From: an uncultured Nitrospiraceae bacterium
GTDB lineage: Bacteria; Nitrospirota; Nitrospiria; Nitrospirales; UBA2166
DNA: 64,000 bases
Reading direction: 5' to 3'
Assembly (NCBI GenBank): GCA_964463965.1
Contig: CAYXED010000006.1
Location: 49,920-113,919, forward strand
How positions within the stretch are numbered: position 1 is the stretch's first letter; every line of letters starts with the position of its first letter. Made by a program: the position numbers and the translations under genes. Shown here in pieces: positions 58,473 through 64,000 of this stretch. The notes below the pieces were generated by a model. That model was not told the DNA's origin. It did no database searches and saw only the letters and a program-made list of their open reading frames with translations.

Positions 58473-58716
58473 GGTCGAGAGCTCAAAATAGCCTGAAAGT
58501 AGTATAAGTGAAGAGAATTTTAATAGACGACACTATAGCAAATGTAGATGCCTGGTCAAAATGAAAGAGGCAGTTTCCCTAATATTTACAGAAAATCTGT
58601 TGCCATTTTTTGATTCAAAGGCAATCATAATGCGGGTTGACGGCCGCTTTCTCGCTCTGCTTTAATGATAATAATAATCAGAAGCGTTTTCGTTAGAATT
58701 GCGACAGGAGAAAAAA

Positions 58717-59760
58717 GTGAATGCAAATGTGGTTTTTTCCAAAAGGGCCTTAGGTATAGCAAGCTATTTATCACTTCCTTGCAGTTTAGTGTTATTGCTT
58801 GTGATGGTTTTTTGGCTAGTTGTCCCAGCCTTGGCATCTGACCTGGTTTTGTACTCTGGCCGTAAAGAAAAGGCCATTAGGCCTGTTGTTGATGCTTTTT
58901 CTGCACAAACGGGCATTTCTGTTGCTTTAAAAACAGGCAAAACATCTGGTTTGGCTAATACCCTTATTCTTGAAAGTACGAGACCTCGCGCAGATGTGTT
59001 CATTGCAACTGTGGGTGGAGTTATGAAAATTTTGACTGATAAAGGGGTTTTGGATTCTTACAAATCGCCATTTTCTGATGGCTTGCCGAATGAATTCAAG
59101 GATTCATCTGGCTACTGGACAGGTATTTCTGGGAGAGCGCGGGTATTGATTTACAATAGCGATCTCCTTAAGACGAATGATGCACCCAAATCAGTCTTTG
59201 AACTGACTGATGAAAAATGGAGAGATAGAATTGCTATTGCTGGAACAAGAGAACGGACCACTTTGAGCTGGGCTTCATGGTTAGTTTCTGAAAAAGGGCA
59301 AGACCAAATCCAGCATTACTTTGAACGATTAGGTGCAAACGGGTTGACGATTCTTTCTGATAACTCCGAAGTGTGGCGTGGGGTTGGTCGTGGAGAGTTT
59401 GTGATTGGTTTAACAAATTCTCCAAATTACCACTTAGCTAAAAAAGCTGGGTTGCCTGTTGGCGTTCTATACCCAGATCAAGAAACAATTGGGACGCTGC
59501 TCAACTTAAACGCAATTGCCTTGGTTAAAGGGGGAGCGAGAGAAGCACAGGCGAAAAAATTTATTGACTTTGTATTATCACCCACAGGGCAAGGCTTATT
59601 AGTTCAAAATGCGTACGAAATTCCATTGATGCCTGACGTTTCTACTGGATCAGTAAAGCCACTATCTGCAATCAAAATACCATCGATAACTGTCCCGAGG
59701 CTTGCTGCAGAAGCAGATTCCACGATGCAGATGCTTCGGGCGATTGACGTACGGTGGTAA
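58717..59760 (+). CDS. Periplasmic solute-binding protein, Fe(III)/AfuA-FbpA-like family; no cognate permease or ATPase adjacent
   Basis: Signal peptide ..VVPALA/SD, then LVLYSGRKEK...ADVFIA...YWTGISGRARVLIYN, typical of ferric-type SBPs. GTG 58717 has AGGAG about 5 nt upstream; TTG 58699 is the ORF-track start. Confidence 0.78.
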   Translation: MNANVVFSKRALGIASYLSLPCSLVLLLVMVFWLVVPALASDLVLYSGRKEKAIRPVVDAFSAQTGISVALKTGKTSGLANTLILESTRPRADVFIATVGGVMKILTDKGVLDSYKSPFSDGLPNEFKDSSGYWTGISGRARVLIYNSDLLKTNDAPKSVFELTDEKWRDRIAIAGTRERTTLSWASWLVSEKGQDQIQHYFERLGANGLTILSDNSEVWRGVGRGEFVIGLTNSPNYHLAKKAGLPVGVLYPDQETIGTLLNLNAIALVKGGAREAQAKKFIDFVLSPTGQGLLVQNAYEIPLMPDVSTGSVKPLSAIKIPSITVPRLAAEADSTMQMLRAIDVRW

Positions 59761-59900: not shown

Positions 59901-61079
59901 GTGCCTAAATTAGCGTGGCCATTAATCATCGGAACTCTTTCTGCGGGTGCGATTTGGATAGTTGCTGGGATGCTTCACTTTCCGCGTGTATTTCAGTGGA
60001 TGTTCGTCTTCTATGTCGCACTAGGGACTGGAGTTTTTCTTCTGCTCGCGGCACCAAGTATGCCTCTTTTACGTGGAGGCAAGGCAATTATAGGTGTTCT
60101 TGTTTTTTACTTGCTCACCTCTGGCGTTTTTTTAGCCGGTGGAGCGATTTTACCGCAGTATGACCCAACGGTTGAGGAAGAGAAAATTCAGAAAATTTTA
60201 AAACATCGGCGTGCGCAATTTGAGCGTCCTAAGAATACTGAGGAGCTCATGAAAAGAGCAGAAGTATTATCAGAAAGAGCAAATGCATTGATGGGGCGTG
60301 TCGCGAAGCTTCAAGGAACAACGGCCCCAGTTGTTGCTATGGTAGGAGCGACCCTAACTCCACTTGAAAGAGGTAAGGAAGTTTACCAGTTATACGAGTG
60401 TTACAATTGTCATAAGATTGGAGGTGAAGGGGGAACAAAAAAACGAGGCCCTGAACTTGGAAATCTTGGCAATGTTTTGACTGCACAACAAACTACTAAA
60501 AAGATTCTTAGTACAAAGGCAGATCCTTATTTTTATGCAGAGGGTTTTGAAAAGGAGCATAAAAAGGGTGTGATGCCAGGAAAATATCGTGAGCTTATGA
60601 CCGATGAAGAACTTACAACACTCACTACGTATTTGATGTCTCTCAAAAACCCTTCCTTTATAACGCCAAAGCCTATTTTCCTTAAGGATCAAGTGCAACA
60701 CGGGTTTACAGTATACGGTTATGTGCGTGATGAGCATGGGCAACCTGTTGAAAATGTAAAGGTTGCGGCTAGGCCAACTCAAGATGGTAGTCATGGAGCA
60801 TCTGCCACAACTAATGAGCAAGGATACTATGAAGCTTTTATCCACCTCCATAATGCTGATGTTGGAGCGACTATAGCTGTGGCAGTTGGGAATAAAACAC
60901 AGGAAATTGTAGCTAACTTTGACCCATTGGATACGAAGACTAAACGGCAAGCATCTATCGATTTCTCAGTCAATGCTAATGTTGCTCGAGCCTTGCCTGT
61001 ATCAACTTCTTCTACGCATTCTGGTCATGCTGAAGACGCTGCACATGCGCATGATGGTGGAGGCGATCATGCGCATTAA
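59901..61079 (+). CDS. Membrane-anchored mono-haem c-type cytochrome with a carboxypeptidase-regulatory-like domain and a His-rich tail
   Basis: About three N-terminal TM helices, a coiled linker, the haem site CYNCHKIGG with a distal GVMPG Met, a beta-sandwich-like FTVYGYVRDEHGQPVENVKVAA segment, and the C-terminus HSGHAEDAAHAHDGGGDHAH. GTG start follows GAGGGGG. Confidence 0.75.
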   Translation: MPKLAWPLIIGTLSAGAIWIVAGMLHFPRVFQWMFVFYVALGTGVFLLLAAPSMPLLRGGKAIIGVLVFYLLTSGVFLAGGAILPQYDPTVEEEKIQKILKHRRAQFERPKNTEELMKRAEVLSERANALMGRVAKLQGTTAPVVAMVGATLTPLERGKEVYQLYECYNCHKIGGEGGTKKRGPELGNLGNVLTAQQTTKKILSTKADPYFYAEGFEKEHKKGVMPGKYRELMTDEELTTLTTYLMSLKNPSFITPKPIFLKDQVQHGFTVYGYVRDEHGQPVENVKVAARPTQDGSHGASATTNEQGYYEAFIHLHNADVGATIAVAVGNKTQEIVANFDPLDTKTKRQASIDFSVNANVARALPVSTSSTHSGHAEDAAHAHDGGGDHAH

Positions 61080-61191: not shown

Positions 61192-63705
61192 TTGAATATG
61201 CTCAAGGATACTACCATTTTATATCGTCCAACGTGCACCACTTTTGATCATGATGGCTTGTATTTTTTTGTTGATGGCGATCGGCCTAATTGGATCGCAA
61301 CAGATTGGCGTGGTGCAACATTGCTGCGTCTGGTTAATGGACATCGAACACTGCAGGACATTGTGTGTGCATATGGTGATGAGGTTGGGATTGAACGTTC
61401 ACAGGCATGGCTGCATGTTCGCTCATATGTTCAGGCAGGACTTCGATGTGAGATCCTTTCCGATGAACCAGTTGTGTCAGACGTTTATGCTGGACGCTCA
61501 TCATACCTTCAGCCTTCTGCTTTGAATGAGTTTTGGGTACATACCAATAACTCATGTAACCTTACTTGTGCACATTGCCTCGTTTCTTCGCATCCCGGTG
61601 CGGATCCTGGTCCAGAGACTGACCATCTCCTTCGAGTTATGACAGAAGCAAAGGAGCTTGGGGTTTCACGGTTTTATTTTACCGGAGGTGAACCATTTCT
61701 TCGTAAAGATGCTTTTGAACTGATCAAGCATGTTACTGTTGACCTTAATGCTGAGCTTATTGTGCTTACAAATGCGACGTTGTTTCGTGGGACCGTACTT
61801 AAACAGCTTCGAGAGATTGATAGAACACGTCTAAAGTTCCAGATTAGCCTTGATGGTGCGACACCGGAGGTAAATGACCCTATTCGTGGAGAAAAAACTT
61901 TTGAAAATATTACACGAGGGATCAAGACTGTTGCTGATTTGGGAATTGATATATCACTGACTGCCGTACTAACTAGAACAAATTTAACTGATCTTCCAAA
62001 GCTGCCGTTTTTGGCAAAATCTCTTGGAGTTTCATCTATTCATGTTATGTGGATGCATCGTCGTGGCAGGGTCTTAGAGCATAATGATCTAGAGTTTCCG
62101 AGTAACGATGAGATGTTAACGTCGATGCGAGCGATAAAAAATAATGCAAGTCAGTGTGGTGTAACATTGGACAATATGGAGTCGTTTCATGGAAGAGTAA
62201 ATGGGCGTCCAGGTGTTAAATTTGATCTTAGTAATGCCTGCTGGGACAGCCTGTGTTTGAGTTATGATGGGCATGTTTATCCCTCTGCATCATTTGCCGG
62301 GCATCCTGCACTTGATCTCGGAGATACCAGGACAGAGTCGTTACAGTCGTTATGGCTGGAAAGTGGGGTCTCAAAGAATATTCGAAGTGCAACAGTGGCC
62401 AATAAGGTTGGGGTATCGACAGATCCATTTCGTTTTATGCTTGGGGGTGGTGATATTGAGCACAGCTATTTCTTTTCAGAACAGCATCCTGGAGAAAGCC
62501 ATGTGCTAGATGTGGATCCTTATTACAGCTTGTATGTAGAATTATGTAAAGACACCATGATAGACCTTGCAAGATCAAAGCGTACGACCTTCAATATAAA
62601 ATCTGGATTTGTAGGCCCTGTCCTGTTTCATGTGATGGGAGAAGGAATGGCAACTTGTGGGAGCCATTTTTGGGATACGCCGGTGACCACACTTCATTCA
62701 AATTGTGTTCTTGCTTTCGATGTTGAAACTCCACATGGGATTATTCAAGATTTTTACGGAAAAGCTGCGGAGACTCCTCAAGCAGAACTGTGTTGTACCA
62801 TTGATGGATATTCAGAAGAGGAGCTCTCTCATATACCCAAAGAAGTTCGTGAACGATTTTATGGATGCGGGTCTCCTATGAGAAGTGCACGAGTTATTGA
62901 AGGGGAGACTGTTGTTGATCTTGGTTCTGGGGGAGGTATCGATTGTTTTATTGCTGCTCGGAAGACAGGCTCCTCTGGTAGGATTATCGGTATTGATATG
63001 ACGGATAACATGCTTCAGGTTGCCGAACGTAATCGCCAACCAGTTGCTGTATCACTTGGTTATGATGTTGTCGAATTTCGTAAAGGCTTTTTAGAAGAGA
63101 TTCCTGTGGAGAGTAAGCTTGTAGACCTTGTAACTTCCAATTGTGTAATCAATCTTTCTCCAGATAAAAAGGCCGTTTTTTCTGAAATTTGGCGGATTCT
63201 CAAAGATGGTGGGCGTATTGTGATATCTGATATTGTTTCTGAAGGGCCCATTCCACCTGAAATTAAAGTTAATAACCAATTATGGGGTGAATGTATTGCG
63301 GGGGCATTGACGGAGGAAGAGTTTGTTGCGTCTCTTGAAGAAGCCGGTTTTTATGGGATTGAGCTTCTTCAGAAAGTTGTATATCGTGATGTCGAGGGGT
63401 ATAAATTCAATTCTGTGACTGTTAGGGGCTATAAGTATGAAGTTTGTTCTAAGTCGTCAAACAATGGTTATGTAGCTATTTATAAGGGGCCAATGAAAAC
63501 CGTGCTTGATGAAAATGGTACTGTCTATCATCGTGGTGAGGCGACGATGGTGTCAGTTGAGACTGCAGAAAGGTTAAAATCAGGCCCTTATGCTTCTGTT
63601 TTTGCGGTGATTGCTTCTGAGGCAACCTCTTACGATATCCCCCCTATGATTCTTCCACTAGATTCTCCACCTCGAGATGTAGATGAATCGACTTGCTGTA
63701 CTTAA
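61192..63705 (+). CDS. Fusion protein: PqqD-like domain + radical SAM core + degenerate SPASM/twitch region + ArsM-type SAM-dependent methyltransferase
   Basis: 837 aa. CNLTCAHC at nt 61555-61578, followed by GGEPFL and SLDGATPEVNDPIRG. The C-terminal half carries ELCC, FYGCGSP, VVDLGSGGGIDCF, TSNCVINLSPDK and LWGECIAGAL, as in arsenite methyltransferases. Start is TTG 61192 or ATG 61198, with no clear SD. Confidence 0.85.
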   Translation: MNMLKDTTILYRPTCTTFDHDGLYFFVDGDRPNWIATDWRGATLLRLVNGHRTLQDIVCAYGDEVGIERSQAWLHVRSYVQAGLRCEILSDEPVVSDVYAGRSSYLQPSALNEFWVHTNNSCNLTCAHCLVSSHPGADPGPETDHLLRVMTEAKELGVSRFYFTGGEPFLRKDAFELIKHVTVDLNAELIVLTNATLFRGTVLKQLREIDRTRLKFQISLDGATPEVNDPIRGEKTFENITRGIKTVADLGIDISLTAVLTRTNLTDLPKLPFLAKSLGVSSIHVMWMHRRGRVLEHNDLEFPSNDEMLTSMRAIKNNASQCGVTLDNMESFHGRVNGRPGVKFDLSNACWDSLCLSYDGHVYPSASFAGHPALDLGDTRTESLQSLWLESGVSKNIRSATVANKVGVSTDPFRFMLGGGDIEHSYFFSEQHPGESHVLDVDPYYSLYVELCKDTMIDLARSKRTTFNIKSGFVGPVLFHVMGEGMATCGSHFWDTPVTTLHSNCVLAFDVETPHGIIQDFYGKAAETPQAELCCTIDGYSEEELSHIPKEVRERFYGCGSPMRSARVIEGETVVDLGSGGGIDCFIAARKTGSSGRIIGIDMTDNMLQVAERNRQPVAVSLGYDVVEFRKGFLEEIPVESKLVDLVTSNCVINLSPDKKAVFSEIWRILKDGGRIVISDIVSEGPIPPEIKVNNQLWGECIAGALTEEEFVASLEEAGFYGIELLQKVVYRDVEGYKFNSVTVRGYKYEVCSKSSNNGYVAIYKGPMKTVLDENGTVYHRGEATMVSVETAERLKSGPYASVFAVIASEATSYDIPPMILPLDSPPRDVDESTCCT

Positions 63706-63743: not shown

Positions 63744-64000
63744 GTGATTAGTATTAGCCGAAAAAGTTTTTTTTGGGGGTTAGCAATTCTTACGATCCTT
63801 ATCGTAATTGGAGTGGCAAGTTTAAAAGGTTTTTTCAGTGACATCAATCTTCCCACTGAAGAAGAAATTTCATCATTTATCGAAGGCTATGGAAATGCTG
63901 GGCCATTACTTTATTTGCTTTTTTATGCTATTGCACCAACATTATTGATCCCAAGCTTTCCAATTACCATGGCCGCTGGATTGCTCTTTGGGACGGGTTG
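63744..64000 (+). CDS. TVP38/TMEM64 (DedA superfamily, SNARE-associated) membrane protein; 3' end outside the window
   Basis: Not in the ORF track because the frame is still open at the window edge. GTG 63744 gives VISISRKSFFWGLAILTILIVIGVA...GNAGPLLYLLFYAIAPTLLIPSFPITMAAGLLFGTG, which fits the family N-terminal pattern. Confidence 0.65.
   Translation, partial: MISISRKSFFWGLAILTILIVIGVASLKGFFSDINLPTEEEISSFIEGYGNAGPLLYLLFYAIAPTLLIPSFPITMAAGLLFGTG

Follow-up and report, generated by a model that had tools for sequence, protein, structure and literature searches.

We examined a 64-kb window of DNA from an uncultured Nitrospiraceae bacterium (64,000 nucleotides of contig CAYXED010000006.1, assembly GCA_964463965.1), and within it a single gene whose product joins an enzyme of the radical S-adenosylmethionine (SAM) type to an ArsM-type arsenite methyltransferase. 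The uninterrupted open reading frame (ORF) runs from 61192 to 63705 on the forward strand and would give 837 amino acids (aa) if its TTG codon were used. In public gene calls translation begins two codons past the TTG, at the ATG at 61198, which gives an 835-aa protein with 100% identity to P0001; this ATG is probably the start codon. Residue numbers refer to the 835-aa protein and are two lower than those of an earlier, sequence-only reading of the same DNA.

The fusion is a real single protein, widespread and biochemically uncharacterized. The alternative that two separate genes had been joined by assembly or gene calling was excluded, its probability being negligible. The same protein was found, identical, in three independent assemblies (Logan SRR8062340, JGI 3300008629 and an ENA 193-kb scaffold), and full-length orthologues number in the hundreds. 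In a word-indexed search 630 homologues reached E<=1e-5; the best 120 of them are 815-885 aa long (median 834), and 94-100% of the query aligns with them at 49-78% identity. Their alignment, to which all conservation counts given as x/120 refer, is continuous and the inter-domain residues are conserved. An AlphaFold2 model built from these 120 homologues was compact, with a predicted local distance difference test (pLDDT) score of 89.2 and a predicted template modeling (pTM) score of 0.89, and was disordered only at aa 487-490 and 809-835. The sequence-only reading had described a single polypeptide of an architecture with no characterized homologue, and had named merged genes as a possible error; the polypeptide stands and the merger is refuted.

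Carriers span about ten phyla among 67 non-redundant genome loci; the wider set of 80 loci examined for gene context includes Nitrospirota, Nitrospinota, Elusimicrobiota, Acidobacteriota, Gemmatimonadota, Planctomycetota (with Scalindua and Brocadiaceae), Chloroflexota and others. In NCBIfam (June 2026 release) no model reached its cutoff on the fusion protein, and source annotations gave only "methyltransferase domain-containing protein" or generic COG-style names. No description of the fusion was found in full-text literature searches, which covered papers available without a subscription. These results agree with the earlier statement on homologues.

Domain organization of the fusion protein

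The positions of the predicted domains and motifs are collected in Table 1.

Table 1. Features of the fusion gene and the adjoining gene in the window, with residue ranges of the 835-aa protein.
Feature	Position	Strand	Remarks
Fusion coding sequence	61198..63705	+	835 aa plus stop; a TTG start at 61192 adds 2 aa; identical protein called on Logan, JGI and ENA contigs
PqqD/RRE-fold N-domain (aa 1-95)	61198..61482	+	Fold topology and SuiB/SkfB matches; family motif PNWIATDxRGA
Radical SAM core (aa ~105-300)	61510..62097	+	Pfam Radical_SAM (PF04055) E=3e-21 at aa 120-260; CNLTCAHC 61555-61578, GGE 61684-61692
SPASM relic (aa 340-430)	62215..62487	+	Pfam SPASM (PF13186) E=0.063 at aa 350-398, below cutoff; hairpin C348, C353, G358 and GGGDxEH kept, cluster Cys gone
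Bridging segment (aa 431-510)	62488..62727	+	Near-invariant C487; HSNCVL 62695-62712, where the radical SAM module ends
Complete ArsM-type methyltransferase (aa 511-808)	62728..63621	+	Pfam, NCBIfam, PDB, Foldseek and conservation; includes the ArsM C-terminal beta domain
ArsM motifs	ELCC Cys codons 62791-62796; YGCGS 62860-62874; SNCV 63136-63147; GEC 63286-63294	+	Also VVDLGSGGGID
Disordered 27-aa tail (aa 809-835), ending ..DESTCCT	63622..63702	+	pLDDT below 50; terminal Cys pair conserved
DedA/VTT-domain membrane protein gene, 5' part	63744..64000	+	233 aa, continues past the window end

The N-terminal domain was recognized by its fold. In the AlphaFold model, aa 14-83 form three strands and then three helices, the topology of PqqD and of the recognition element (RRE) of ribosomally synthesized and post-translationally modified peptide (RiPP) pathways. 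The Pfam PqqD model (PF05402) gave a sub-threshold match to the window protein (E=0.4) but exceeded its cutoff (23.4 bits) at the same position in two relatives (P0150, 33.3 bits; P0164, 27.6 bits). A Foldseek comparison of the N-terminal half with the PDB returned the RRE-bearing maturases SuiB (~470 columns) and SkfB first, followed by anSME, BlsE, PqqE and ChlB. Relatives have kept the RRE fold, with strong conservation.

In the radical SAM core, which matched the anSME, PqqE, SuiB and BlsE folds in Foldseek, the three cluster Cys of CxxxCxxC were present in 120/120 relatives. The invariance of this motif, of GGE and of many further core residues across phyla argues that SAM cleavage is under selection, and the radical SAM half as a whole is under purifying selection. 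The best curated NCBIfam model for the core was the Rv1681 family (NF049973), with 130 bits against a cutoff of 380 and an alignment restricted to aa 111-279. The ArsS model (TIGR04167) reached 48.4 bits against a cutoff of 300 and aligned only with the generic core (aa 105-251), which ruled out ArsS orthology of this half. The best 25 NCBIfam matches, down to 48 bits, included no ArsL model, and the RCCLKC motif is not in the sequence. By these comparisons the radical SAM module constitutes a family of its own.

The region that follows the core corresponds to a SPASM domain in which most cluster ligands are missing. Several relatives carry intact SPASM domains above the cutoff, and for this reason the degenerate region is considered homologous to SPASM. 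C353 is the sole invariant Cys of the stretch, and C348 is Cys in 59/120. The position of the Cys in the GX4C motif is occupied by Ser in 117/120 (GX4S), and the CX2CX5CX3C positions, which read V..D.....L...D in the window protein, are Cys in only 4-5/120. The ancestral auxiliary-cluster Cys, and hence the clusters, are thus lost in about 96% of members. Judged from sequence, fold and conservation, the N-terminal half descends from the RRE-plus-SPASM peptide maturases and still looks like a working radical SAM enzyme, with its auxiliary-cluster Cys lost. The bridging segment adds two conserved Cys, C487 (113/120) and C503 (120/120). Three unfused relatives (P0153, P0157, P0187) and one of reversed domain order (P0186) end in HCxC(V/A)L, and two more (P0160, P0178) end just past CVL; these termini correspond to the invariant HSNCVL (aa 500-505) of the window protein, at which the radical SAM module ends.

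The C-terminal half matched ArsM at every level examined. Pfam Methyltransf_31 covered aa 571-719 (E=3e-30) with the SAM motif VVDLGSGGGID, and a PDB sequence search returned ArsM of Chlamydomonas and Cyanidioschyzon and human AS3MT with E-values of about 1e-37 to 1e-38. Foldseek against the PDB likewise placed ArsM/AS3MT structures first (6cx6, 4fr0, 5evj and human AS3MT; E about 1e-23, ~300 columns, 32-33% identity). In CmArsM, C44, C72, C174 and C224 are the four conserved Cys that bind As(III) and cycle as disulfides. The YGCGS, SNCVxNLS and GEC motifs align residue for residue with CrArsM and CmArsM, the initial Cys of ELCC coincides with the CrArsM Cys, and all the ArsM Cys positions (CC532/533, C557, C649, C699) were conserved in 120/120 relatives. 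The best NCBIfam match of this half was arsenite methyltransferase (NF008823), which scored 250.1 bits when the domain was searched alone and 247.4 bits with the entire protein. By sequence, fold and conservation, this half constitutes a complete ArsM-type As(III) SAM methyltransferase with its As(III)-binding thiol quartet. In the tail, C833 and C834 are each conserved in 115/120.

The domain order proposed in the sequence-only reading was largely borne out: its PqqD-like N-domain at the level of the fold, its radical SAM core with CNLTCAHC, its Cys-poor SPASM-like region as a degenerate relic, and its ArsM match with all four As(III)-binding Cys. A correction is needed at the C-terminus, where an 85-aa tail had been described; aa ~745-808 belong to the folded ArsM C-terminal domain, and only aa 809-835 are disordered and tipped by the Cys pair.

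Relatives and their gene neighborhoods

When aa 1-505 served as query for an exhaustive phmmer search, 139 cluster representatives scored E<=1e-30, and their architectures varied. Besides the ~830-aa radical SAM-ArsM form of the window, they comprise proteins of 980-1080 aa that carry an additional DUF5714 at the C-terminus, proteins of 700-765 aa in which PqqD and SPASM are intact and fused to ArsM-like or Cys-motif-less methyltransferases, fusions in the reversed order (ArsM-like, then radical SAM), and unfused proteins of 475-522 aa. A short radical SAM-ArsM fusion of about 607-623 aa, which has no RRE, also exists. Such repeated fusion, in both orders, counts as classical evidence that this radical SAM lineage and ArsM-type methyltransferases are coupled in function.

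Two of these architectures have features of their own. In the 980-1080-aa proteins (P0147, P0170, P0188 and others) DUF5714, a domain without known function, lies C-terminal of the ArsM-like domain, and these proteins often have several linker CC pairs and are without the N-terminal ELCC. The short fusion (L076 595-2466, L081 1575-3401, L083 1747-3570, L085 5972-7843) has a compact, Cys-rich, twitch-like end (CPILIDD...CYTC) and was seen in Thermodesulfobacteriota, Brocadiaceae and Planctomycetota; its ArsM half forms a clade sister to the window type.

Gene context was examined in 80 species-representative genome loci, of which the 67 non-redundant loci with a full-length fusion were counted. 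Neighbors within 10 kb of the fusion gene were clustered and recounted by tblastn. The most frequent was a PiT/PHO4 transporter (26/67 loci, 21 of them within 2 kb), followed by a DedA/VTT protein (23/67), a TIGR04282-like CofC/DUF2064 protein (20/67), a TIGR04283-like GT2 protein (18/67; either transferase in 25/67), a MerA/Lpd-like flavin adenine dinucleotide (FAD) disulfide reductase (17/67) and DUF547 (13/67). ArsR was present in 3/67 and ArsC-like genes at 2 loci, and tblastn found neither ArsS nor TIGR04169 within 10 kb at any of the 67 loci. The neighboring transferases exceed their curated cutoffs, with 227-277 bits for TIGR04283 (cutoff 182) and 195-205 bits for TIGR04282 (cutoff 134).

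Individual loci show how these genes are arranged. A 59%-identical relative has a compact operon of fusion, PiT, DedA-DUF3047, TIGR04283 and TIGR04282, with a major facilitator superfamily (MFS) transporter and an ArsC-like low-molecular-weight phosphatase divergently upstream. The unfused radical SAM protein P0160 is encoded directly between TIGR04283 and TIGR04282, with DedA upstream. Stand-alone ArsMs that are 50-55% identical to the fused domain were found in ArsR-ArsM-TIGR04169-ArsS-TIGR04282 cassettes, in which the ArsS (locus L072) scored 415 bits on TIGR04167. In a neighbor-joining tree (no support values) these ArsS-cassette ArsMs nest inside the fused ArsM clade, far from the crystallized ArsMs.

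Further genes recur near members of the family. DUF3047, a secreted domain of unknown function, was observed alone, fused to DedA/VTT (L089 7276-8676) or fused to the TIGR04282 CofC-like protein (L005 11275-12714), and its recurrence suggests an extracytoplasmic step in the pathway. Unfused radical SAM genes were also observed beside lipid-related genes, namely LPG_synthase_TM with DedA (L090 3104-8230) and glycerophosphodiester phosphodiesterase with patatin (L091 169-4062); each was seen in one locus only, and they hint at a product linked to membrane lipids. A radical SAM protein of ~714 aa (cluster 22) is conserved ~2-4 kb downstream of the fusion in four Vicinamibacterales loci (L040, L047, L049, L050), sometimes with DUF547. 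Several candidate partners were rejected as restricted to 1-2 lineages each (nucleoside phosphorylase, GDPD, patatin, LPG-synthase TM, fatty-acid hydroxylase, PhyH, MFS and O-methyltransferase). The second "cluster 0" genes of Vicinamibacterales and other loci proved to be MoaA or unrelated SPASM enzymes that single-linkage clustering had drawn in.

In the window, DedA starts 38 nt past the fusion stop codon and no terminator-like site was found in the gap, so the two genes are probably co-transcribed. The gene order at this locus, as in a 78%-identical relative, is solute-binding protein, cytochrome c protein, fusion, DedA and GAF protein. The Fe(III)-type ATP-binding cassette (ABC) solute-binding protein gene (58699-59760) precedes the cytochrome c gene (59901-61079, +), which encodes a 392-aa membrane-anchored protein that combines an Ig-like/CarboxypepD_reg domain with a His-rich tail at its C-terminus (..HSGHAEDAAHAHDGGGDHAH). 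This pair lies beside the fusion only in the close clade of the window (L088). The GAF-domain protein (528 aa, L001 13309-14895) lies just past the 3' end of the window, on the same strand after DedA, and was likewise seen only in the close clade (L001-L003, L088), where it might act as a lineage-specific sensor or regulator of the locus. With conservation limited to this clade, the solute-binding protein, the His-tailed cytochrome c and the GAF protein were rejected as parts of the system. On the source contig, ~9 kb downstream of the fusion, two adjacent genes (L001 21932-22508) have matches to the Pfam small metal-binding protein (SMBP) family.

Proposed function and rival explanations

We lean, with modest confidence, toward a bifunctional enzyme of organoarsenical biosynthesis, in which an ArsM is combined with a radical enzyme that forms carbon-arsenic (C-As) bonds in analogy to ArsS. 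The sequence-only reading had named, as one of two options, a one-protein enzyme for organo-metalloid C-bond formation and methylation. That option draws comparative support from the invariant Cys quartet, the fusions in both orders, the TIGR04282/TIGR04283 and PiT neighbors (with an occasional ArsR or ArsC-like gene and never ArsS) and the shared ArsM clade; at the window locus itself the support from neighbors is reduced to DedA.

In the proposed scheme, arsenate would enter through the adjacent PiT transporter and be reduced, and the ArsM domain would convert As(III) to methylarsenite, MAs(III), and dimethylarsenite, DMAs(III). The radical SAM module, which from the gene context of relatives would take the place of ArsS in an arsenosugar-type cassette, would then use radical chemistry to form the third C-As bond. 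Most likely it would add the 5'-deoxyadenosyl radical to DMAs(III) in the manner of ArsS, whose adenosylation of DMAs(III) is redox-neutral (PMC13598754). A reaction of this type would need no auxiliary clusters, which matches their loss in the fusion. The TIGR04283 and TIGR04282 transferases, where present, would process the product, DedA (often fused to DUF3047) would handle it at the membrane, and the MerA-like FAD disulfide reductase may re-reduce the catalytic Cys pairs. More speculatively, and by analogy with the As(III)-binding RCCLKC tail of ArsL, C353, C487, C503 and the flexible CC-tipped tail could retain the arsenical or pass it from one active site to the other. In the marine Nitrospirales-like lineage of the window the enzyme may act without the transferases.

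Several observations weigh against an organoarsenical biosynthesis enzyme. Function in this family is assigned wholly by comparison, and the sequence does not separate adenosyl transfer from hydrogen-abstraction chemistry. The ArsM half falls short of the 263-bit cutoff of NF008823, a near miss; a stand-alone ArsM of the same clade (L077) is also under it, with 234 bits. The "arsenosugar" names of TIGR04282 and TIGR04283 come from co-occurrence with ArsS and not from experiment. Neither transferase, PiT nor ars genes were found near the fusion in the window locus or in its 78%-identical relative, where DedA alone is present, and a tblastn search for accessory genes found none elsewhere in the 64-kb window; no accessory gene of the counted set was present at 15 of the 67 loci. 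The unfused radical SAM protein with the TIGR04282/TIGR04283 cassette has a UbiE/MenG methyltransferase nearby and no ArsM, and in some fused relatives the methyltransferase is without the Cys quartet, so the radical SAM family is not intrinsically arsenic-specific. All carriers found among the 80 loci are uncultured, known from metagenome-assembled or enrichment-derived genomes. Finally, the scheme assigns no role to the retained RRE fold.

Some of these points would fit a different element. The ArsM-like half could methylate selenium, tellurium, antimony or a thiol-bound substrate, leading to a seleno- or telluro-organic or, in view of the PiT neighbor, phosphate-related product, and we consider this unlikely, though worth keeping in view. 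The NCBIfam ArsM-family models include several selenoprotein variants and ArsS is often a selenoprotein, and the slightly sub-cutoff score of the ArsM half, the context-based names of TIGR04282/TIGR04283 and the rarity of explicit ars genes beside the fusion would all be consistent with it. Arsenic is nevertheless favored by the four invariant As(III)-ligand Cys, which align with those of crystallized As(III)-bound ArsMs, by the nearest stand-alone relatives, which adjoin ArsR and ArsS, and by the PiT neighbors, since PiT-type carriers are a classical route of arsenate entry. If the element is arsenic, the protein could still be a detoxifying ArsM whose radical SAM half supplies electrons, regenerates dithiols or is vestigial, with no C-As bond formed. 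Loss of the SPASM clusters, which shows how far the ancestral role of the N-terminal half has been left behind, and the presence of DedA alone beside the fusion in the window would suit such an accessory module. We regard it as quite improbable, given CxxxCxxC, GGE and other core residues that are invariant across phyla, fusions that arose repeatedly and in both orders, and an unfused radical SAM protein embedded between biosynthetic transferases.

The second option of the sequence-only reading was a peptide-directed modification enzyme. Here the RRE domain would recruit a Cys-rich peptide or protein, the radical SAM half would modify it and the methyltransferase would methylate it. The RRE fold is kept and strongly conserved, and by fold and hidden Markov model score the N-terminal half is closest to SuiB, SkfB, PqqE and sactipeptide-type maturases. 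The loci, however, offered no precursor peptide gene: when all ORFs of 18-110 aa up to 1.5 kb from the fusion were clustered across the 67 loci, none proved conserved, and the short-ORF clusters that did appear were antisense shadows of PiT and other neighbors, or the tail of the fusion itself. No protease or ABC-exporter RiPP genes recurred in the clustered neighborhoods, the SPASM auxiliary-cluster Cys are gone in nearly all members, and the methyltransferase carries a metalloid-binding Cys quartet and not a peptide-methylase signature. We therefore did not retain this option and consider a maturase very improbable.

If the organoarsenical reading is correct, the enzyme would have significance beyond this locus. 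To our knowledge, only ArsS and ArsL are known as radical SAM enzymes that form C-As bonds, each with a separate ArsM. The fusion would add a third, unrelated lineage, covalently joined to its own methyltransferase, and would extend the producers of complex organoarsenicals past cyanobacteria and algae. The carriers are uncultured soil, groundwater and marine bacteria, including marine nitrite oxidizers (Nitrospirota, Nitrospinota), anammox Planctomycetota, Acidobacteriota and Gemmatimonadota; they would represent an unrecognized bacterial source of environmental arsenosugars or arsenolipids, with a self-contained, single-enzyme As-C system. The fusion gene could then serve as a marker in surveys of arsenic biogeochemistry, and the protein as a compact two-active-site enzyme for studying metalloid hand-over between nucleophilic and radical SAM reactions. 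It would also illustrate clearly how a peptide-maturase scaffold (RRE plus SPASM), having lost its auxiliary clusters, can be turned to small-molecule chemistry. The fuller proposal, that a third, independent C-As-forming radical SAM lineage arose from RRE/SPASM maturases and makes complex organoarsenicals (arsenosugar-type, membrane-associated or of a new class) in non-phototrophs, is tentative and in our judgment rather doubtful.

Comparison with known systems

The nearest parallel is the arsenosugar system of ArsS and ArsM, which likewise pairs a radical SAM enzyme with ArsM. The accessory genes TIGR04282 and TIGR04283 are common to that system and to relatives of the fusion, ArsMs of ArsS cassettes fall in the clade of the fused domain, and the reaction proposed for the fusion is, by analogy, that of ArsS. 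The two differ in that the radical SAM half is no ArsS orthologue (48 bits, cutoff 300). ArsS has a C-terminal domain rich in Cys or selenocysteine, whereas the fusion has an RRE fold and a SPASM relic, and the ArsS system consists of separate polypeptides while the fusion carries both domains on one. The AhpD-like partner TIGR04169 of ArsS cassettes is absent from the fusion loci, where PiT, DedA, DUF547 and the MerA-like reductase recur instead.

A second parallel is the arsinothricin system of ArsL and ArsM, which may be analogous in joining a C-As bond-forming radical SAM enzyme with ArsM methylation. The C-terminal RCCLKC Cys tail of ArsL binds As(III) (bioRxiv 10.1101/2024.02.01.577332), and the HSNC motif and CC-tipped tail of the fusion may be its counterparts. 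ArsL belongs to the RCCLKC-tail subfamily and transfers a 3-amino-3-carboxypropyl group, whereas the fusion is without RCCLKC; ArsL also does not share a polypeptide with its ArsM, and the fusion has no arsQML context.

For the two halves taken singly, the relations are of fold and ancestry. The maturases SuiB, SkfB, AlbA, PqqE with PqqD, and MftC have the same N-terminal architecture and fold, with an RRE, a partial TIM barrel and a SPASM-like C-terminal extension. The fusion differs from them in having neither the seven-Cys SPASM motif nor a precursor gene, and in being joined to a metalloid methyltransferase. The Rv1681 (MoeX) family, itself of unknown function, supplies the top curated model for the fusion core, but its match is far under the cutoff and confined to the core. 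Canonical ArsM/AS3MT enzymes (CmArsM, 4fr0; CrArsM, 5evj; human AS3MT, 8xt7) have the three-domain fold in common with the fused domain, along with the four catalytic Cys. The fused ArsM is distinct from them as the C-terminal half of an 835-aa protein, as a member of a separate clade and by its score just under the NF008823 cutoff. The general theme of a radical SAM enzyme working with ArsM toward organoarsenicals is already known from ArsS and ArsL; what is new here is a maturase-derived lineage fused in cis.

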